Source: an uncultured Bacillales bacterium (GTDB lineage: Bacteria > Bacillota_I > Bacilli_A > RFN20 > CAG-826). Taken from it: DNA of 64,000 bases. The notes beneath the pieces were generated by a model. It saw nothing but the letters and a program-made list of their open reading frames with translations. It was not told the DNA's origin and searched no databases. The first letter of the stretch is position 1; every line of letters starts with the position of its first letter. A program made the position numbers and the translations under genes. Positions 2,481 through 61,199 of the stretch are shown here, one piece after another. The DNA is taken from the NCBI GenBank assembly GCA_937902735.1, contig CALELS010000015.1:154744-218743 (forward strand). Direction: 5' to 3'.

Positions 2481-2989
2481 TCAAATAGTTTAGATAACTT
2501 AAGCAAATAAAGCTCATTATTCTTTTGCTTATGTTTTTTAGAAGTAAATACTTCTTTCCAGAAAATAGATTTATCTGCTAACGTGAGGATACGTGCTTCT
2601 TTTGTATCTGGGAATAAAGTGATGTTAAAAGGCCACATATGTCTTCTTATGATATCTTTTACATCATCTTCAATATTAAAGTCTCTAGAGGCGTTATTTA
2701 TAGATACTTCAGGATGTTTCTTACAATGAGACATCCTTTTATCTTTTTCAATCCTCCAATCATAAAGATAATAGTCATGAAGAATAGATCCTAATAATAA
2801 AGTCTTAAGATTAACATTCTTGTGTCTTAATCCTCTTTTGACTGCAAGTTTAGCAACTTTAAAAGAATGAATATAACAATTAGAACCTCGATGCATTGGA
2901 ATTGTTTGCATTTTTAAAATTCTTTCATCTTTGAATAATGATGAATAGATTTCTTCAAGTTCTAATTTTTCCTTATTATTTATATTCAT
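2477..2989 (-). CDS. HD-domain phosphohydrolase
   Basis: H...HD metal-binding motif (IHSFKVAKLA ... ILHDY) and downstream D; 170 aa. Confidence 0.5.
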   Translation of the reverse strand: MNINNKEKLELEEIYSSLFKDERILKMQTIPMHRGSNCYIHSFKVAKLAVKRGLRHKNVNLKTLLLGSILHDYYLYDWRIEKDKRMSHCKKHPEVSINNASRDFNIEDDVKDIIRRHMWPFNITLFPDTKEARILTLADKSIFWKEVFTSKKHKQKNNELYLLKLSKLFD

Positions 2990-4353
2990 TAATTTAATAT
3001 AGTTGGATCTTTAAACATATATATCTTCCATTGCATATATGTAACTTTGTTATATGTCACTTGATCTTGTTGATAAAGTGAATAGAAGATTGTAACAGTT
3101 TTATTATCGGTAAAATAACTATCATCAATATTTGGCCAATCATAATTATCATTATTAAATCTTGCATAATAACGTGACGCTGCAACTTGATTTGATGAAG
3201 GGGAAGTTGAGTAATATTGATCTCCGCATATTTCCTCATTAGATGAATTATTAATGTAATCAAAATATACAGTACTTTTATATACATATTGGAATGAAGA
3301 TAGATAATCTGGATATCTCCTATAATCCTTATCATCTAATTTAGGACGTTTAATATTAAATGTTTCTTTAATAGTGATATCTTTATAACTTTCATATGGA
3401 TCATCAACACTTACATCACTTTTAAGTTTATAATCAAGCACTCTAAGGGATGGTTTCCATTGATTGGTGGAAGTAAGTCCTGTGATATCATAGACACTTC
3501 CAACTGTAAATGTGGTGTTAGATATAAAGTCATACACTCCCATAATTTTCTTAGTTGAATCGGTAAATATCCAAGAATTGTTATCTGCTTTGCCAATGCA
3601 CTTAAGATCTTCCATTTTATGGATATAACCAATTCCTTGCCCTTTAGCGTTATAATCTGCTTCATTATTTACTACATTGTAGAATGAAGGAATAGAATCG
3701 ATATAACTAGTTGATAATTTATCTAAATCATAGGTGACTTCTAATTTTTCATCCCAAGTGAATGATTCACAAACAACTTCAGGTTGTCCACGATATAATC
3801 CAATTTTTCCTTTAATTATGTACTTTGAATTATGTTTTTGTTTATTATTTGAAAAAGATTGATACAAAGTATTTTGAGACTGGCTACCTGGTTGACTTGC
3901 AACAAAAATATAGCCTGTTTCATCAGCCACTAAAACTTTCATTTGTGGGGTATGATTCGCACTATTAGCTTTAGTATCTATTGAATCTATTGCTTGACCA
4001 ACAAATTCTACTTCAATTTCACTAGTAGTGATTTTAATATCATCAGTAGCAGGTGTTAATTTATTACATAACTCTTTAATCTCTTTAATAGTTTTAATAG
4101 TAGTTACTGGAGTTGGTGGAGTTGGAGGAGGATCTTCATGTGGTGGATCTTCTTCTTCATCTCCTCCTTCATCTGGAGGATTTACATCACCTTCGCCTTC
4201 ACTGCCTTCTCCTTCTCCTTCACTAGGAGTTTGTTCTCCCTCTGATTCACCTTCATCATCTTGATGAGGAATAGGAGTAACATCTTCCTGAGTTGGAAGA
4301 TTACAACCACTAAGGAGTAATGGAATTAGTAAAAACAATATATTTTTCTTCAT
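2989..4353 (-). CDS. Lipoprotein with acidic Gly/Glu-rich and Pro/Thr-rich linker, unknown function
   Basis: Start moved to internal ATG at 4353 (MKKNILFLLIPLLLSGC: lipobox LSGC). Mature protein begins with GESEGE...PPPTPPTP low-complexity linker, then a globular domain. Confidence 0.6.
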   Translation of the reverse strand: MKKNILFLLIPLLLSGCNLPTQEDVTPIPHQDDEGESEGEQTPSEGEGEGSEGEGDVNPPDEGGDEEEDPPHEDPPPTPPTPVTTIKTIKEIKELCNKLTPATDDIKITTSEIEVEFVGQAIDSIDTKANSANHTPQMKVLVADETGYIFVASQPGSQSQNTLYQSFSNNKQKHNSKYIIKGKIGLYRGQPEVVCESFTWDEKLEVTYDLDKLSTSYIDSIPSFYNVVNNEADYNAKGQGIGYIHKMEDLKCIGKADNNSWIFTDSTKKIMGVYDFISNTTFTVGSVYDITGLTSTNQWKPSLRVLDYKLKSDVSVDDPYESYKDITIKETFNIKRPKLDDKDYRRYPDYLSSFQYVYKSTVYFDYINNSSNEEICGDQYYSTSPSSNQVAASRYYARFNNDNYDWPNIDDSYFTDNKTVTIFYSLYQQDQVTYNKVTYMQWKIYMFKDPTILN

Positions 4354-4389
4354 AACATTAATTTTAATATCTTGAAGATATTTTTGAAA

Positions 4390-4436
4390 CAATATTGCAT
4401 AAAAAAGCGACACAATTCAAATTGGTCGCTTAATAT
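4390..4436 (-). terminator. Intrinsic terminator downstream of HIT gene
   Basis: Stem AAGCGAC/GTCGCTT followed by U-run on minus strand. Confidence 0.4.
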
Positions 4437-4455: not shown

Positions 4456-4875
4456 CTACATTCCTTTTCTAACAATTTCGGCTATTAAAGGAAGATTTAA
4501 GTCTTTCTCGTTGTTTTCCTTCATTGTAATTTCAAAGCCTTCTTTTTTGGCGTATCTAGGGATTACATGAACATGGAAGTGATAAACGCTTTGACCTGCT
4601 TCTTTATTAACATTAGTTAAGACATTAACTCCTTTAGCACCTAAAACAGCAATATCAGCCTGACCAATGCGTTGAGCAACATCCATAACCTTATGCATTG
4701 TTTCTTTATCTACTGCTAAGAAGTTATCAAAATGTTCCTTTGGAATAACTAATGCATGACCTTTAGTAGTTTGTGATATATCTAAGAATGCAATCACATC
4801 ATCATCTTCATATATTGTGCTTGAAGGTATCTCATGATTAGCAATCTTACAAAATATGCAATCATCTTTTTTCAT
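4456..4875 (-). CDS. HIT-family (histidine triad) nucleotide hydrolase
   Basis: C-x-F-C N-terminal motif and HFHVHVIP histidine triad; RBS AAGGAG. Confidence 0.85.
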   Translation of the reverse strand: MKKDDCIFCKIANHEIPSSTIYEDDDVIAFLDISQTTKGHALVIPKEHFDNFLAVDKETMHKVMDVAQRIGQADIAVLGAKGVNVLTNVNKEAGQSVYHFHVHVIPRYAKKEGFEITMKENNEKDLNLPLIAEIVRKGM

Positions 4876-16154: not shown

Positions 16155-16304
16155 ATTCTTGTTTCAGGGTAAGGTGCAATTCCTAACCGGTGGTATACCC
16201 CACGAGCCAATAGGCAGATCTAGTGTAATTCTAGAGGCGACAGTAAAGTCTGGATGGAAGAAACATTTATGTTATGTTTGTTACCCTGAAATAGGGTATT
16301 TTTT
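16155..16304 (+). promoter_or_regulatory. FMN riboswitch (RFN element) whose terminator hairpin also sequesters the RBS
   Basis: CAGGGTAAGGTGCAATTCCTAACCGGTGGTA ... GCGACAGTAAAGTCTGGATGGAAGAAAC matches the RFN core (B. subtilis ribD: CAGGGUGAAAUUCCCGACCGGCGGUAGUAAAG ... GCCGACAGUGAAAGUCUGGAUGGGAGAAGGA). Followed by hairpin TACCCT-GAAA-AGGGTA plus T6 immediately before the ATG. Confidence 0.75.
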
Positions 16305-17006
16305 ATGATAAATTGGAATCAACTTGTTGGAATTATTGCCTTTCTTATTTGGGCTGTTTTTACTGCATTAATTTACAGAAGAGAACACAAGGATGAAGAA
16401 AAGAATATTGTTACTGTTAAATCTATTGCAAGAATTGGTGTATTTGGCGCAATTTCTACACTGTTATATGTAATCCCAATATTCAATATTCCAATTCCTG
16501 CAATTTTTCCAACATTTTTAAAATTTCACTTTGATGAAATACCTGCTTTAATTGCTGGTTTTGCCTTTGGCCCTTATAGTGCGTTGGGAATTATTTTAAT
16601 AAAAACATTAATCAAAATCCCATTAGGCGGCGCTACAACTATGTATGTTGGAGAAATCTCAGATTTCATTTATTCATGTGCCTTAATCCTCCCGGCAACA
16701 TTTATTTATCGAAAACACCGCAAATTTAAATTTGCTTTATTAGGTTTATCTATTGGCTTTGTAAGTCAAATTGTGGTCGCTTTATTCTTCAATATTTACA
16801 TTATGGTTCCAACATATATGAGATTGTTCTCTATGGACGAAAATGCGATTTTATCAATGATGCCACCATTTATTAAAAACCCAAGATGGTCTTATGGATT
16901 AATATCTGTTCTTCCATTCAATGTAATAAAGAACTTTATAGTTATTGCAATTACTTTAGTGATTTATAAACCACTACGTCGTTTGATTGAGAAAATTAAA
17001 GCATAA
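16305..17006 (+). CDS. ribU: ECF transporter substrate-specific (S) component, predicted riboflavin transporter RibU
   Basis: Small polytopic membrane protein with an S-component-like profile, directly downstream of the FMN riboswitch. Confidence 0.6.
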   Translation: MINWNQLVGIIAFLIWAVFTALIYRREHKDEEKNIVTVKSIARIGVFGAISTLLYVIPIFNIPIPAIFPTFLKFHFDEIPALIAGFAFGPYSALGIILIKTLIKIPLGGATTMYVGEISDFIYSCALILPATFIYRKHRKFKFALLGLSIGFVSQIVVALFFNIYIMVPTYMRLFSMDENAILSMMPPFIKNPRWSYGLISVLPFNVIKNFIVIAITLVIYKPLRRLIEKIKA

Positions 17007-17051: not shown

Positions 17052-17222
17052 TTATTCAACATCAATCGCACCAAATGGGCATTCGAATCCGAGTTCATCG
17101 TCGATTTCTTCAACGACGGCTTTGGCATGGCCATCTGCATCGAATTCAAATACTTCTGGGCGACATCCAACGCATAAACCGCAGGAACCGCAAGCATCTG
17201 CATTAACTTTTACTTTTGGCAT
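17052..17222 (-). CDS. fer: Small [4Fe-4S]/[3Fe-4S] ferredoxin (56 aa), absent from the supplied ORF track
   Basis: Minus-strand translation MPKVKVNADACGSCGLCVGCRPEVFEFDADGHAKAVVEEIDDELGFECPFGAIDVE. It has a Cys cluster plus distal CP motif typical of Bacillus-type single-cluster ferredoxins, and RBS GGAGGA 8 nt upstream of the ATG. Confidence 0.75.
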   Translation of the reverse strand: MPKVKVNADACGSCGLCVGCRPEVFEFDADGHAKAVVEEIDDELGFECPFGAIDVE

Positions 17223-20013: not shown

Positions 20014-20038
20014 ATTCTCGATTTTTCGAGAATTTTTT
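20014..20038 (+). terminator. Intrinsic terminator downstream of hup
   Basis: ATTCTCGA-TTTTT-TCGAGAAT stem followed by TTTTTT. Confidence 0.6.
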
Positions 20039-20049
20039 ATAATGTAAAT

Positions 20050-20658
20050 ATGCCTGTTAAAGCTTTTGATGAATTAAAAAGAGTATTCAACGAAAATAGA
20101 TTTCGTTTATTTATGATTGGTGGAACATCTCGTGACTATCTATTAAAAATAGATGTGCTAGATTTTGATTTTGTAACTGATGCGACTCCTAATGATATGA
20201 AAAAATTTCTACCAGAGGCAAATTATCGATTTGAAAAATATGGTAGCGTTCGTCTGAAAATGAATGGAGTTCATGTGGATATAACAACTCTTAGAAAAGA
20301 ATCGAAATACTTGGATAATAGACATCCTAGCGAAGTTATATTTACAAAAAAACTTGAAGAGGATTATATTAGACGCGATTTTACAATCAATGCTATATAT
20401 ATTGATGAAAATTACAAAATAGTGGACTTCTGCAGTGGAATTTCAGACTTAAATAACAAAATCATTCGCTTTATTGGTAATCCAGAAGAAAGGATTAAAG
20501 AAGATCCCCTTCGAATCTTAAGAGGTGAAAGATTTGCCAAACGACTTGCTTTTCTAATTGAAGAAAATACATTAAAAGCAATGGAAAAATATCGATATCT
20601 TCTTGATTATTTGAATCAAGAAAAAATTCGAGAAGAAAATGCTAAATCTTTTAAATAA
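20050..20658 (+). CDS. Minimal polymerase-beta-type nucleotidyltransferase of the CCA-adding/poly(A) polymerase family (head domain only, 202 aa)
   Basis: Class II tRNA-NT head motifs GGTSRDYLL ... DFDFVTDATP ... RRDFTINAIY; no body/tail domain, and the next gene (dnaD) starts 24 nt later. Confidence 0.55.
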   Translation: MPVKAFDELKRVFNENRFRLFMIGGTSRDYLLKIDVLDFDFVTDATPNDMKKFLPEANYRFEKYGSVRLKMNGVHVDITTLRKESKYLDNRHPSEVIFTKKLEEDYIRRDFTINAIYIDENYKIVDFCSGISDLNNKIIRFIGNPEERIKEDPLRILRGERFAKRLAFLIEENTLKAMEKYRYLLDYLNQEKIREENAKSFK

Positions 20659-20681: not shown

Positions 20682-21332
20682 ATGTCACCTGTACAAATGG
20701 AAGCTCTCGACTTCCGCTATCTATTACTTGAATATTATAAAAAGCTAAGGCTAAGTGAAAATGAATTAGCTGTAATTTTGATGATTGATCATCTTTTAGA
20801 GCAAAAAAATGTTTTAATTACACCTGATCTTTTATCTATTCGAATGAATCTTAAGATTAATGAAATTGACAAAATTATGGTTTCGTTGATTGATAAAGGT
20901 TTTCTTGACTATGATTTTTCAAAAAAAGTAAAAGTTTCTTTAAAACCTTTAAAAAAGGAATTGTATAAATATTTCCAAAACTCATTAGTTAAGGAACACG
21001 AAAATAGTTTCAATGAGAATAAAGCGGCGTTCTTAAAGAATATTTATGATGTCTTCGAAAAAGAACTTTCAAGATCTCTTTCTCCGCTTGAGATTTCGTT
21101 AATTGGAGAATGGGTTGATCAAGGATATACTGATGAAACTATTATAAATGCTTTAAAAGAAGCTCTTTCGAAAGGAAAGAAATCATTAAAATCTGTTGAT
21201 AAAATTTTGCTTCAATGGCAAGCAAGAGATGATTTAGAAAAGAATGGTTATACAACTATCTCTGAAAAATGGGATAAGAATATGGATGAAACCTTAAAAA
21301 TCATCAAAACTAAATGGGTTGATAATGACTAG
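20682..21332 (+). CDS. dnaD: DnaD-domain replication initiation/membrane attachment protein
   Basis: N-terminal winged-helix-like segment and C-terminal DDBH2-like region (LSPLEISLIGEWVDQGY ... KILLQWQARD); dnaD-nth adjacency as in B. subtilis. Confidence 0.55.
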   Translation: MSPVQMEALDFRYLLLEYYKKLRLSENELAVILMIDHLLEQKNVLITPDLLSIRMNLKINEIDKIMVSLIDKGFLDYDFSKKVKVSLKPLKKELYKYFQNSLVKEHENSFNENKAAFLKNIYDVFEKELSRSLSPLEISLIGEWVDQGYTDETIINALKEALSKGKKSLKSVDKILLQWQARDDLEKNGYTTISEKWDKNMDETLKIIKTKWVDND

Positions 21333-21942
21333 AAAATTAGAAGATATTTTTTCTTTTTTAGATAAAGAATATCCAAACGCTAAATGTGCTCTTAATTACA
21401 CGAAAGATTATGAGTTTTTAATTGCGGTTATGTTAAGCGCCCAAACAACAGATAACGCAGTGAACAAAGCAACTGCAGTTTTGTTTAAAAAATATCCAAC
21501 TATTGAATCACTTGCTAATGCAGATTTAAAGGATGTAACAAGAATCATTTCCTTCCTTGGAATGTACCAAAAGAAGGCAGAAAATGTTATCAGTATTTCA
21601 AAACTTTTAATTAGGGATTTTGATGGAAAAGTACCCAACAACCCCGCTTATTTGGTCACTTTACCTGGTGTTGGAAACAAAACTAAAAATTGTGTATTAG
21701 GTGAATTATATAATGTTCCTTTATTAGCTGTTGACACCCATGTTCAACGTATCTCAAAACGATTAAAACTTGTTGATGAAAATGATAGTGTGGAAACAAT
21801 CGAAAGAAAGCTGACAAAATTAATTCCGCAACAAAGATTAATTAAAACGAATCATCAAATTATTTGGTTTGGAAGATCCAGATGTAAAGCAATGCACCCA
21901 TTGTGTAAAGACTGCCCACTAGCAGAATACTGCAAATATTAA
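21319..21942 (+). CDS. nth: Endonuclease III (DNA glycosylase/AP lyase) with 4Fe-4S cluster
   Basis: HhH-GPD motif LPGVGNKTKNCVL and C-terminal CKAMHPLCKDCPLAEYC cluster. Confidence 0.85.
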   Translation: MIMTRKLEDIFSFLDKEYPNAKCALNYTKDYEFLIAVMLSAQTTDNAVNKATAVLFKKYPTIESLANADLKDVTRIISFLGMYQKKAENVISISKLLIRDFDGKVPNNPAYLVTLPGVGNKTKNCVLGELYNVPLLAVDTHVQRISKRLKLVDENDSVETIERKLTKLIPQQRLIKTNHQIIWFGRSRCKAMHPLCKDCPLAEYCKY

Positions 21943-23351: not shown

Positions 23352-23714
23352 ATGGCGCACAAGTTGAACTTTACATCCAAGACTTTGCTCGAATATACAT
23401 TTGAAAAAAATGTAAGGGGCTATAATGCTTACCAAGTTGATAGCGTTCTTGATAAGGTAATCGAAGACCTACTATATTACGAAAATAGTGTCCAAGATTT
23501 AGAAAAAAAGAACGATAGACTTATTGCAAGATGTTCAACTCTTGAAGTCGAAGTTAAACAAAGAGATCTTAGGATTGCTGAGTTAACTAATAAACTTCCA
23601 TCTTTGAAGAACGATAAAAACATTTCGAGGGAAAATGTTAATCTTCTTAAAAGAATTGATGCCTTAGAAAAAGCCCTTTATCAAAAGGGTGTAGATCCCT
23701 CAAGAATTAAATAA
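23352..23714 (+). CDS. gpsB: DivIVA-domain cell-cycle protein GpsB
   Basis: DivIVA/GpsB N-terminal motif FEKNVRGYNAYQVDSVLDKVIED and coiled-coil; gpsB-rnpB adjacency as in B. subtilis. Confidence 0.65.
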   Translation: MAHKLNFTSKTLLEYTFEKNVRGYNAYQVDSVLDKVIEDLLYYENSVQDLEKKNDRLIARCSTLEVEVKQRDLRIAELTNKLPSLKNDKNISRENVNLLKRIDALEKALYQKGVDPSRIK

Positions 23715-24047
23715 TCTCCGACCTGGATAATTGCTTCGAAAGAAGAGGAAAGTCCATGCTCGCACTAACCTGTGATGGTAGTAGTGATTGTGCTAGCGGA
23801 AAAAATAACGCTAGGTATATGGGAGCATATAACGGCGAAACTAGTCTAAAACTTCGGTCATGATGATGTTTCTGAAAGTGCCACAGTGACGATATTGATA
23901 GAAATATCAATGTGGAACGGGTAAACCCCGCAAGCGAGAAACCCAAATTTGGTAGGGGAGGTTAGGAAAGAGAATCGAATCAATCCTAGCACACGTAAGT
24001 GTAGATAAATTATTATCCTAGACAAAACATGGCTTACAGGGTCGGAA
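23715..24047 (+). ncRNA. rnpB: RNase P RNA (type B, Bacillus-like, compact)
   Basis: GAGGAAAGTCCATGCTCGCAC, GAAAGTGCCACAGTGACGA, GGAACGGGTAAACCCCGCAAGCGAGAAACCCAAATTTGGTAGGGGA and ACATGGCTTACAGGG match B. subtilis rnpB almost base for base. P1 pairs TCCGACC with GGTCGGA. Confidence 0.9.
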
Positions 24048-24062
24048 CTCAAAAAGGAAACT

Positions 24063-24713
24063 ATGAACACACCAACTAAAATTACCGTTTCAAGAATTGC
24101 TCTAATTATCTTAATGTTATTAGGCTTATTTGTTTTGTCGTTCTTCCAAGGGTTTGAAATTTATGAAATCCCTTTAGGAAGTGTAAAGATTTCTGTTGTT
24201 TATTTAGTCTGTACAGTCATTTTTCTAGTAGCTGCTTTCACTGATTTTCTTGATGGTTACTTAGCTCGTAAAAATAATCAAGTTACTGATTTAGGAAAAT
24301 TCCTTGATCCTATTGCAGATAAACTTCTTGTTGATGGAATGATGATTTTCCTTTTAATCCCACAAGGATACGCTCCAAGTCATCAACGTGATTCTCTCTC
24401 AATTACTATATTAGCTTTCTGTGTAATCATTATGATTGCTAGAGATCTTATTGTTGATGCATTAAGATTAATTGCAGTTACTAAAAATCAAGTAATTGCA
24501 GCTAATATCTTTGGAAAAATGAAGACTGTTTTCCAAATGATTGCTATTCCTTTCTTATTATTAAATGATTTTCCATTTGCTTATTTTGATTCTTCTTGGC
24601 CTGATGCCTTAAGAATTAGTAATTTTATGTTCTATATTGCTACCATTATGAGTTTAGTCTCTGGCATAATTTATGTAGTACAAAACCATAAGGTTTTGAA
24701 AATGAAAAAATAA
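24063..24713 (+). CDS. pgsA: CDP-diacylglycerol--glycerol-3-phosphate 3-phosphatidyltransferase
   Basis: CDP-alcohol phosphatidyltransferase motif DFLDGYLARKNNQVTDLGKFLDPIADK; pgsA-cinA-recA synteny. Confidence 0.8.
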   Translation: MNTPTKITVSRIALIILMLLGLFVLSFFQGFEIYEIPLGSVKISVVYLVCTVIFLVAAFTDFLDGYLARKNNQVTDLGKFLDPIADKLLVDGMMIFLLIPQGYAPSHQRDSLSITILAFCVIIMIARDLIVDALRLIAVTKNQVIAANIFGKMKTVFQMIAIPFLLLNDFPFAYFDSSWPDALRISNFMFYIATIMSLVSGIIYVVQNHKVLKMKK

Positions 24714-47650: not shown

Positions 47651-47725
47651 TGGCTGGGGCGACTGGGATCGAACCAGTGAATGGTGAGTTCAGAGCCCAC
47701 TGCCTTACCGCTTGGCTACACCCCA
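47651..47725 (-). tRNA. tRNA-Gln (anticodon CUG)
   Basis: Cloverleaf folded by hand: acceptor UGGGGUG/CGCCCCA, U1-A72, discriminator G73, loop CUCUGAA, TUCGAUC T-loop, CCA encoded. Confidence 0.8.
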
Positions 47726-47743
47726 AATATAAAAGGTGGCGTA

Positions 47744-47831
47744 TGGTGCCCGGGACCGGACTTGAACCGGTATGAGTTATTCACTCGAGGGATTTTAAGT
47801 CCCTTGCGTCTACCAATTTCGCCACCTGGGC
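47744..47831 (-). tRNA. tRNA-Leu (anticodon UAA), class II long variable arm
   Basis: Acceptor GCCCAGG with one A5-C68 mismatch, D-stem GCG/CGC, anticodon loop CUUAAAA, variable arm GAGUgaauaaACUC, CCA encoded. Confidence 0.75.
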
Positions 47832-47839
47832 ATTTTAAG

Positions 47840-47916
47840 TGGTCTCCCGTAGACGATTTGAACGTCCGACCCCTTGATTAAAAGTCGAGTGCTCTAGCCA
47901 ACTGAGCTAACGGGAG
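47840..47916 (-). tRNA. tRNA-Lys (anticodon UUU)
   Basis: TAGCTCAGTTGGCTAGAGC D-arm, anticodon loop CUUUUAA, T-loop TTCAAAT, acceptor CTCCCGT/ACGGGAG (C1-G72), discriminator A, CCA encoded. Confidence 0.8.
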
Positions 47917-48059
47917 ACATGCGACTTAAGAAAAATCGCTTTGATATTATTACACATTAAAAAAATATATTCCATAATTTTTTATAAAATAATAGCGAGT
48001 CTATGTAAAAAGACCATTTATTATTAAATAATATTCGATTTATTTGCTTATTATAAATA

Positions 48060-48088
48060 AAAAAATGATACAAAGTATCATCTGAATC
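48060..48088 (-). terminator. Intrinsic terminator after the Val-Tyr-Gln tRNA cluster
   Basis: Minus-strand hairpin ATGATAC-TTT-GTATCAT followed by T7. Confidence 0.5.
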
Positions 48089-48163
48089 TGGTTGGGGTGG
48101 CTGGATTCGGACCAGCGCATGATGGAGTCAAAGTCCATTGCCTTACCACTTGGCTACACCCCA
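48089..48163 (-). tRNA. tRNA-Gln (anticodon UUG)
   Basis: Same scaffold as the CUG isoacceptor; anticodon stem AUGGA/UCCAU, loop CUUUGAC. Confidence 0.8.
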
Positions 48164-48170
48164 ATAAGAG

Positions 48171-48254
48171 TGGTGGAGGAAGGTGGATTTGAACCACCGA
48201 ACCCGAAGGAATTGATTTACAGTCAACCGCGTTTGGCCGCTTCGCTATTCCTCC
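48171..48254 (-). tRNA. tRNA-Tyr (anticodon GUA), long variable arm
   Basis: Acceptor GGAGGAA/TTCCTCC, anticodon loop CUGUAAA, variable arm TTCCTTCGGGTTCGG, CCA encoded. Confidence 0.8.
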
Positions 48255-48268
48255 ACGATACGCTAAGA

Positions 48269-48344
48269 TGGTGGATGTTGAGGGGCTCGAACCCCCGACC
48301 CCCGCCGTGTAAAGGCGATGCTCTCCCAGCTGAGCTAAACATCC
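48269..48344 (-). tRNA. tRNA-Val (anticodon UAC)
   Basis: GGATGTTTAGCTCAGCTGGGAGAGCATCGCCTTTACACGGCGG... closely matches the bacterial tRNA-Val(UAC) consensus. Confidence 0.85.
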
Positions 48345-52364: not shown

Positions 52365-52449
<85 letters not shown>

Positions 52450-61046: not shown

Positions 61047-61135
61047 TGGCGGAAGATAAGAGATTTGAACTCTTGCGCCCCTTTCGGAACCTATGAGCTT
61101 TCCAAGCCCACCCCTTCAGCCTCTTGGGTAATCTT
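61047..61135 (-). tRNA. tRNA-Ser (anticodon GGA), long variable arm
   Basis: GGAAGATTACCCAAGAGGCTGAAGGG ... anticodon loop UUGGAAA, variable arm TAGGTTCCGAAAGGGGCGC, discriminator G73, CCA encoded. Confidence 0.8.
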
Positions 61136-61199
61136 CCGGCTGCGAATTATTATATGTTTTCTTTTACTTAAAAACAACAAACATTTAAACTTAAATATT

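Follow-up and report, generated by a model that had tools for sequence, protein, structure and literature searches.

A conserved 202-residue class II nucleotidyltransferase lacking body and tail in uncultured Bacilli, and its relationship to dipeptidase-domain fusions

Introduction

Class II CCA-adding enzymes are textbook template-independent polymerases. Their body and tail have been described as the tRNA-binding site (PMC8563995; PMC3925840). The locus analyzed here encodes a member of this family that ends after 202 residues, and the question it raises is whether this is a damaged gene, one half of a divided enzyme, or a complete protein with a function of its own. A natural version without the tRNA-holding half, conserved in uncultured Bacilli of gut and rumen, would test the core alone in substrate binding, in the switch from C to A, and in termination. 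In what follows, "the window" is the whole 64-kb stretch of DNA that was analyzed.

Results

Extent of the ORF and family matches

The ORF and its immediate surroundings are as follows.

20014 to 20033, no strand assigned: terminator-like G+C-poor hairpin, ATTCTCGA, 4 nt, TCGAGAAT, then a T run, between hup and the ORF (from the sequence)
20050 to 20658, + strand: coding sequence of a 202-aa minimal class II nucleotidyltransferase, head and truncated neck (ORF, Pfam and NCBIfam matches, AlphaFold, Foldseek)
20682 to 21942, + strand: dnaD (DnaD_N and DnaB_2 domains, 20682 to 21332) and nth (21319 to 21942), from Pfam and synteny

The reading frame comprises 202 codons on the + strand, from an ATG at 20050 to a TAA at 20656–20658. 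TATAAT occurs at 20036–20041, 8 nt upstream of the ATG, and no Shine-Dalgarno sequence is present upstream of the ORF. Between the stop codon and the dnaD start at 20682 lie 23 intergenic nt, which leave no space for a shifted continuation, as the initial annotation had argued. In relatives that end in TGA, read-through gains at most 22 codons, so the short length is independent of the genetic code. Both a frameshift and an alternative genetic code are thereby ruled out.

Residues 20–140 match the PolyA_pol head model of Pfam (E 1.7e-31, 109.6 bits), and the top NCBIfam match is the Bacilli CCA equivalog PRK13299, at 189.1 bits over profile positions 16–202 of 396. The score lies under the PRK13299 equivalog cut-off of 290 bits because half of the profile is absent. 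Two pcnB models scored lower, TIGR01942 at 120.5 bits (cut-off 305.65) and PRK11623 at 90.5 bits (cut-off 702). The protein is not placed in PcnB, since it falls below both of these cut-offs, lacks the C-terminal domain and has a loop region of the CCA type. PF12627 (PolyA_pol_RNAbd) aligned over positions 2–34 of 64 only, with a sub-threshold 13.1 bits, and a match that stops at position 34 means that the protein ends within the neck; PF13735 was not found in the Pfam scan. The 202-aa protein thus consists of the head and the first two thirds of the neck, and it terminates 3 residues past the motif E region.

The initial annotation had assigned the ORF to the class II CCA/poly(A)-polymerase family from three strings, which we located at residues 24–32 (GGTSRDYLL), 38–47 (DFDFVTDATP) and 108–117 (RRDFTINAIY), and the Pfam and PRK13299 matches bear that assignment out. 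Its suggested comparison with the PolyA_pol and PolyA_pol_RNAbd models gave the head match and the partial neck match described above. It had also called the product a stand-alone head. The absence of body and tail stood, with the profile alignment ending at 202 of 396, PF12627 partial and PF13735 absent. The bare head did not, as most of the neck, motifs A–D, the motif E region, the B/A motif and the flexible loop are all present.

Catalytic core and predicted fold

Structure prediction, another of its suggestions, returned the head-neck fold of CCA-adding enzymes with high confidence (AlphaFold pLDDT 92.5, pTM 0.87). Foldseek superposed 194–195 columns of the model on 6qxn and 1miv with a query-normalized TM of 0.86–0.87 and an rmsd of 1.7–2.4 Å. 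The targets, CCA-adding enzymes of Planococcus and Geobacillus with 370–400 residues, are covered by this overlap in their head and neck. The elements of the core are listed below.

20119 to 20169, + strand: motif A, residues 24–40, GGTSRD...DFD, with catalytic aspartates D38 and D40 (from invariance)
20230 to 20289, + strand: head beta-hairpin, residues 61–80, strands 66–71 and 74–80, turn N72-G73 (AlphaFold secondary structure)
20293 to 20328, + strand: B/A motif (R82, E84) and flexible loop (Y87, D89, R91, H92, P93), from family invariance
20371 to 20394, + strand: motif B, RRDFTINA, residues 108–115, ribose recognition (R108, R109, D110 and N114 invariant)
20425 to 20478, + strand: motif C region, residues 126–143 (D126, G130, D133 ... 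IRFIG), from family invariance
20500 to 20535, + strand: motif D, residues 151–162, EDPLRILRGERF, the EDxxR template for CTP and ATP (from invariance)
20614 to 20646, + strand: motif E region, residues 189–199 (N189, K192, E196, K199), from family invariance

Sixty-one columns are invariant among 43 family members, every catalytic residue included. In motif A these are G24, G25, R28, D29, D38 and D40, which are also invariant in comparison with the E. coli CCA, E. coli PAP and Listeria CCA enzymes; the third carboxylate, D77 in the head beta-hairpin, is invariant in the family. The motif C region contributes D126, G130, D133, L134, F141, I142 and G143. In motif D, residues E151, D152, R155, R158 and R161 are unchanged across all compared enzymes, with the pattern EDPLRILRxxRF. 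The motif E region is present from N189 to K199, with K192 at a position where 97% of 90 canonical enzymes have Arg.

The flexible loop aligns without gaps and has the same length as the loops of the Listeria and Planococcus CCA enzymes, whereas E. coli PAP and E. coli CCA carry insertions in this region. CC-adding enzymes are recognized by a deleted flexible loop (PMC7014341), and the 202-aa protein, with a full-length and invariant loop, does not belong with them. Motifs A–D, a motif E region with Lys at the position of the usual Arg, the B/A motif and a Bacilli-type flexible loop are retained, and with them the catalytic core.

Conservation of the short form

A protein half as long as canonical enzymes, with an NCBIfam score under the equivalog cut-off, might be taken for an artefact of sequencing or assembly, or for the fragment of a decaying cca pseudogene. 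We give this explanation practically no chance. More than 120 homologues were found in databases, and the best 120 have 181–214 aa (nearly all of them 199–214 aa) and 60–74% identity. Thirty-four syntenic loci carry a gene, here X, of 184–238 aa in the hup-X-dnaD-nth-recU slot. Fifteen of these come from species-representative genomes, all of them metagenome-assembled genomes of uncultured Bacilli, "Mollicutes" or "Erysipelotrichaceae", with an orthologue of 202–214 aa, a GC content of 25–36% and the gene order cmk-der-(gpsA)-hup-X-dnaD-nth-recU(-)-exonuclease(-). The other 19 are metagenome loci with the same arrangement, in which X has 184–238 aa and GC is 30–60%.

The same length thus recurs in more than 120 independent sequences and at 34 loci, from many samples and assemblers. 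Compared with the orthologue at locus L037 (74% identity), the ORF has a dN/dS of 0.13, against 0.12 for the neighboring nth, with dS near saturation. Together with the 61 invariant columns, the confident fold prediction and the start of dnaD so close downstream, this speaks against an artefact or a pseudogene, and the conservation data exclude both. The initial annotation had held that a canonical full-length cca elsewhere, combined with poor conservation of the ORF in relatives, would count against it; the ORF is conserved.

A search of 1.8 billion cluster representatives extended the family, and recovered many proteins of 201–234 aa with 40–52% identity beside canonical enzymes of 380–470 aa. 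Members of the short-protein clusters have consistent lengths and lie on long contigs, and therefore the short proteins are not fragments.

A dnaD-linked group that includes dipeptidase-domain fusions

The co-directional pair dnaD-nth always lies directly downstream of the gene family (15 + 19 + 8 loci). In a neighbor-joining tree of the head-neck region, a crude one without support values, 25 of 27 short forms fell into one clade of 43 members. Canonical CCA enzymes are a minority among the ten long members of this clade: in six of them, a Peptidase_M19 (membrane dipeptidase) domain comes after head and neck. A seventh, P0147, can be aligned with these fusions, although Pfam detected no M19 domain in it. 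P0168, P0217 and P0160 have an intact M19 domain, with the motifs HCDT, EEG, SHLSD, ASHSN and DFDG; in P0208, P0146, P0198 and P0147 its metal ligands are degenerate, with loss of HxD. Two proteins were set aside: P0121 (612 aa), which reflects an assembly duplication, and P0132, a single fusion of head and neck to a GT2 domain.

A search with P0217 returned at least 85 clusters of fusions of 537–566 aa, on contigs of up to 2.0 Mb. Where named, the fusions are annotated as "membrane dipeptidase" and the short forms as "CCA tRNA nucleotidyltransferase", and these names hide the relationship between the core and the M19 dipeptidase. The fusion genes directly precede dnaD-nth-ponA(-)-recU(-)-exonuclease(-), in the slot that the ORF takes in the window. 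The fusions, among them P0217, P0325 and P0337, share with the window protein this slot, 41–47% head-neck identity and a joint neighbor-joining cluster; they differ from it by a linker helix and the M19 domain, both of which it lacks. All residues invariant in the core motifs are invariant in the M19 fusions as well.

Short forms and fusions have in common Y117, P153, K192 and L9, residues that set them apart from canonical enzymes. Among 90 of the latter, Ala occupies position 117 in 69% and position 153 in 69%, and Arg occupies position 192 in 97%. The window protein shows both marks of the group, being encoded directly upstream of dnaD-nth and carrying L9, Y117, P153 and K192.

Intermediates of 220–234, 324–364 and 456–505 aa link the short and the fused extremes. 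Alignment to an HMM of 83 fusions showed that forms of 359–364 aa keep remnants of the M19 N-terminus and that forms of 220–234 aa keep the linker helix only. The window protein aligns to positions 5–199 of this 549-position model and has no M19 domain. These lengths suggest an erosion series, from about 550 aa through 456–505, 324–364 and 220–234 aa to about 202 aa, in which the direction would be the one indicated by the degenerate intermediates.

By the evidence of sequence and gene order, then, the 202-aa protein belongs to a distinct and old orthologous group and is not simply a shortened cca. The view of the initial annotation, that of a minimal CCA-type enzyme without body and tail, was in this respect insufficient, because longer members of the group have a Peptidase_M19 domain in place of these parts. 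The group occurs in uncultured Mollicutes-like Bacilli of low to intermediate GC content. It probably lost the tRNA-binding body and tail long ago, and in the lineage of the window the M19 appendage would have been wholly eroded. In the literature that we searched, no description was found of a natural head-neck-only class II enzyme or of an M19-CCA fusion. The combination of PolyA_pol with M19 in sister lineages, and its apparent stepwise decay, were unexpected.

tRNA genes of the window

Eight tRNA genes were identified in the window.

47651 to 48344, - strand: six clustered tRNA genes, each encoding its 3' CCA (ARAGORN; 3' ends read)
52365 to 52449 and 61047 to 61137: two further tRNA genes, CCA encoded (ARAGORN; 3' ends read)

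CCA is encoded in 8/8 tRNA genes of the window and in 4/4 independent ones in related loci, from both short-form and fusion lineages. Since these genes encode their own CCA, its de novo synthesis is unnecessary. Mollicutes, whose tRNA genes likewise encode CCA, have lost the CCA enzyme altogether (PMC4014445). The tRNAs of the window appear to be canonical cloverleaves. The window also holds an RNase P RNA of Firmicute class B and several housekeeping genes related to tRNA or rRNA, namely mnmG, rsmG, miaA, miaB, argS and rny.

Discussion

Repair of tRNA 3' ends

Our preferred reading, to which we assign a probability of about 0.45, is that the 202-aa protein is a minimal, catalytically complete class II nucleotidyltransferase that acts as a low-affinity tRNA 3'-end repair enzyme and works without an anchor at the tRNA elbow. 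As judged from its conserved residues, it would be an active nucleotidyltransferase using the EDxxR pocket for CTP and ATP. The carboxylates, motif B, EDxxR, B/A motif and loop that it retains are known to determine the addition of C and then A. The enzyme might rebuild tRNA 3' ends that have been trimmed, replacing mainly A76, the last nucleotide, and perhaps C75-A76. Only the acceptor end would be bound, through the cleft between head and neck and the primer-binding beta-hairpin, with low affinity and distributive action. From this we infer tRNA as the substrate, CCA repair as the product, and a compensating role for extra basic residues.

Several properties of known enzymes bear on this scheme. 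Modern class II enzymes have a weak affinity for tRNA and act distributively (PMC9728577), and they accept mini- and microhelices, at lower efficiency (PMC7730189). In the Romanomermis enzyme, basic residues around the beta-turn substitute for the contact between T-arm and C-terminus (PMC7730189). K or R occurs at position 68 with a frequency of 0.56 in the short forms and of 0.07 in 90 canonical enzymes, and at position 70 with frequencies of 0.76 and 0.13; both positions sit on the strand leading into the primer-binding beta-turn. Local K/R enrichment of the short forms is confined to positions 68, 70 and 83. It is a modest signal on the whole, and the M19 fusions do not show it at position 70. 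Since the pI of the orthologues ranges from 5.4 to 8.9, a general electrostatic substitute for the missing domains is ruled out.

Some considerations weigh against repair. Binding of tRNA by a head-neck fragment may be too weak to matter, and it is not obvious how an ancestral fusion to a dipeptidase would relate to tRNA repair. The presence of Y117, as in E. coli poly(A) polymerase, together with Lys in place of the near-invariant Arg of motif E, could indicate an altered specificity. Should a canonical cca also be present in the same genomes, repair by the short protein would be redundant. If the repair enzyme is real, head and neck would be sufficient in vivo, and the protein would be the only CCA-family enzyme of a large clade of gut bacteria. 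The group might then mark an intermediate stage of reductive evolution, between the full enzyme of Bacilli and the complete absence in Mollicutes.

The closest known relatives are the Bacilli CCA-adding enzymes of Geobacillus stearothermophilus (1MIV) and Planococcus halocryophilus (6QXN/6IBP), with 31–36% identity over about 195 residues. They have in common with the 202-aa protein the head-neck fold, motifs A–D, a motif E region, the B/A motif, a loop of equal length and the EDxxR pocket. About 175–200 of their C-terminal residues have no counterpart here; these make up the last part of the neck together with body and tail, and form the binding site for the acceptor/T-arm of tRNA. The genomic context differs too, the gene lying upstream of dnaD here and beside birA in the case of Listeria cca. 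The CCA enzymes of Romanomermis culicivorax and Ascaris suum add CCA without contact between T-arm and C-terminus, with basic beta-turn residues compensating (PMC7730189, PMC12013499). In those nematodes, however, the tRNAs lost their arms and the enzyme is full length, whereas here the enzyme lost its tRNA-binding half. A repair limited to A76 would resemble the activity of A-adding enzymes, although in these the restriction comes from the C-terminal part, and the 202-aa protein has no such part; CC-adding enzymes, in turn, lack the flexible loop that it has (PMC7014341).

Other possible roles

The protein might instead tail RNAs other than tRNA, adding A, or C and A, to accessible 3' ends and serving RNA turnover in the manner of a poly(A) or poly(C,A) polymerase in a lineage without PcnB. 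The elements that measure and hold tRNA are indeed missing. E. coli PcnB (3AQL) belongs to the same superfamily, with a head-neck TM of about 0.8, and has in common with our protein the Tyr after motif B and the Pro of motif D. The context of Y117, INAxY, resembles E. coli PAP (INSLYY) and not Bacilli CCA (INAIA), and P153 occurs in both E. coli PAP and E. coli CCA. Betat et al. reportedly found in 2004, by swapping domains between PAP and CCA enzymes, that product type is governed by the C-terminal part, which we count in favor of tailing. We nevertheless consider this role unlikely. By overall similarity the protein is clearly closer to Bacilli CCA, with 189 bits, than to pcnB, with 120 bits, and the flexible loop has the type and length found in CCA enzymes, while the insert of E. 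coli PAP is longer and different. The residues of the C-to-A switch, in the B/A motif and the loop, are invariant, and a plain poly(A) polymerase would need none of them. PcnB binds RNA through body and leg domains; the 202-aa protein has neither these nor a basic RNA-binding extension.

The initial annotation had suggested either a non-tRNA nucleotidyltransferase or a protein that acts in trans with another. In the latter case, a separately encoded partner could supply tRNA binding, so that canonical CCA addition would take place in trans. One hint in this direction is that degenerate M19 domains without their HxD ligands are still kept, as if an appended or associated domain had a structural role. 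We looked for such a partner with an HMM built from 19 body-tail regions, and neither the 64-kb window nor any of 15 related loci gave a match; HMMs of C-terminal halves and full-length enzymes revealed no body/tail-like ORF and no second CCA gene in the window or in L001–L015. The only conserved neighbors of the family are the housekeeping genes hup, dnaD, nth and recU, and neither the window nor the surroundings of the short forms contained a stand-alone M19 gene. That the protein has been eroded step by step to 201–208 aa in many lineages speaks for a core that works on its own. A split enzyme is for us quite improbable.

The fusions raise the further possibility of a function unrelated to RNA ends and inherited from a fused ancestor, such as the dipeptidase-coupled nucleotidylation of an acceptor that is peptide-like or otherwise small, with the 202-aa protein retaining only the transferase half of the pathway. 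The many clusters of intact PolyA_pol-M19 fusions (at least 85) in the same slot are in its favor, as are the intact M19 catalytic motifs of P0217, P0160 and P0168 and a domain pairing that lacks an explanation, no paper having been found that links both domains. Set against this, the residues with which CCA enzymes recognize NTP base, ribose and RNA primer are all conserved. M19 has been degraded or lost repeatedly while the transferase stayed under purifying selection, and the transferase is therefore independent of the dipeptidase. It may also be that adjacent genes were joined neutrally in the fusion. Such a function appears very improbable to us.

Short forms and M19 fusions could also be viewed jointly as a new functional class of class II nucleotidyltransferases that makes no use of the tRNA elbow. 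It would comprise either the smallest natural CCA-repair enzyme or a transferase for another acceptor in a pathway once coupled to a dipeptidase. This broader proposal we hold to be doubtful, with tRNA 3'-end repair by the 202-aa protein remaining our preferred reading.

The loci differ in one further gene. Between nth and recU, ponA is absent from the window and from L001–L015 and present in fusion loci. A dependence of M19 loss on the loss of peptidoglycan (ponA) is made less likely by locus L063, where a 232-aa short form and ponA occur together.

Fusion to a dipeptidase and its proposed decay

The head-neck core of the 202-aa PolyA_pol-family protein (window 20050-20658, plus strand) also occurs joined to an intact Peptidase_M19 dipeptidase domain, in a widespread and uncharacterised fusion of 537-566 aa that comprises at least 85 clusters and is known in databases only as 'membrane dipeptidase'. 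In related loci, the following fusion genes lie in the slot equivalent to that of the 202-aa gene:

L041:6001-7683, head-neck::M19 fusion
L043:6001-7650, head-neck::M19 fusion
L044:1434-3083, head-neck::M19 fusion

Relatives of intermediate length carry an M19 domain that lacks the HxD metal ligands or is reduced to an N-terminal remnant:

P0208, P0146, P0198 and P0147, proteins of 456-505 aa
P0135, P0136 and P0130, proteins of 332-364 aa
L075:2637-3701, gene in a related locus

These intermediate forms suggest that the M19 domain decayed stepwise, ending in the 202-aa form.

Three homologues have other architectures. P0125 (1312 aa) contains two CCA-like modules followed by unrelated C-terminal sequence, and P0132 (478 aa) is a single case of a head-neck::glycosyltransferase-2 fusion. 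The exact internal duplication in P0121 (612 aa) is probably an assembly artefact.

Gene order and upstream region

Directly downstream of the fusion gene there is always dnaD-nth-ponA-recU, with ponA (encoding a class A PBP) and recU on the minus strand. In the window, nth directly adjoins recU (junction 21942-21939) and ponA is not between them, while it is present at this position in fusion-type relatives and in the related locus L063. The correspondence between ponA loss and M19 domain loss is not strict. The absence of ponA at nth/recU is consistent with a wall-less lineage, without proving one.

Ahead of the 202-aa ORF, hup is followed by a hairpin and T run (window 20014-20049), and TATAAT lies 8 nt upstream of the ATG. 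No Shine-Dalgarno sequence was found upstream of this ORF or of dnaD. The mRNA may be leaderless or Shine-Dalgarno-independent.

Encoded CCA in tRNA genes

The 3' CCA is gene-encoded in all tRNA genes seen for the clade (8/8 in the window and 4/4 independent ones in related loci), as is reported for Mollicutes (PMC4014445):

47651-48344, 52365-52449 and 61047-61137, minus strand, window
L041:5931-6006, L043:5762-5837, L063:4256-4332 and L069:3926-4001, related loci

Other features of the window

About 3 kb downstream of the 202-aa gene lies a class B bacterial RNase P RNA (23719-24041, plus strand, 269 bits); the mechanical ORFs 23707-23946 and 23858-24070 (both minus strand) overlap it and were rejected as spurious. 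An FMN riboswitch (16156-16269, plus strand, 107 bits) stands directly 5' of the gene at 16305-17006, whose 233-aa membrane protein product resembles a riboflavin ECF S component. Between this ribU-like gene and cmk, on the opposite strand, is a 56-aa ferredoxin-like ORF (CxxCxxC...CP; 17052-17222, minus strand), kept in relatives L037 and L038, where it is called Fer4_15. Three adjoining large ORFs gave no Pfam match at E <= 1e-5:

2989-4413, minus strand, 474 aa
4925-6772, minus strand, 615 aa
6744-8783, minus strand, 679 aa

Next to them are a gene of the HIT family (4456-4875) and one for a 170-aa HD-domain protein (2477-2989).
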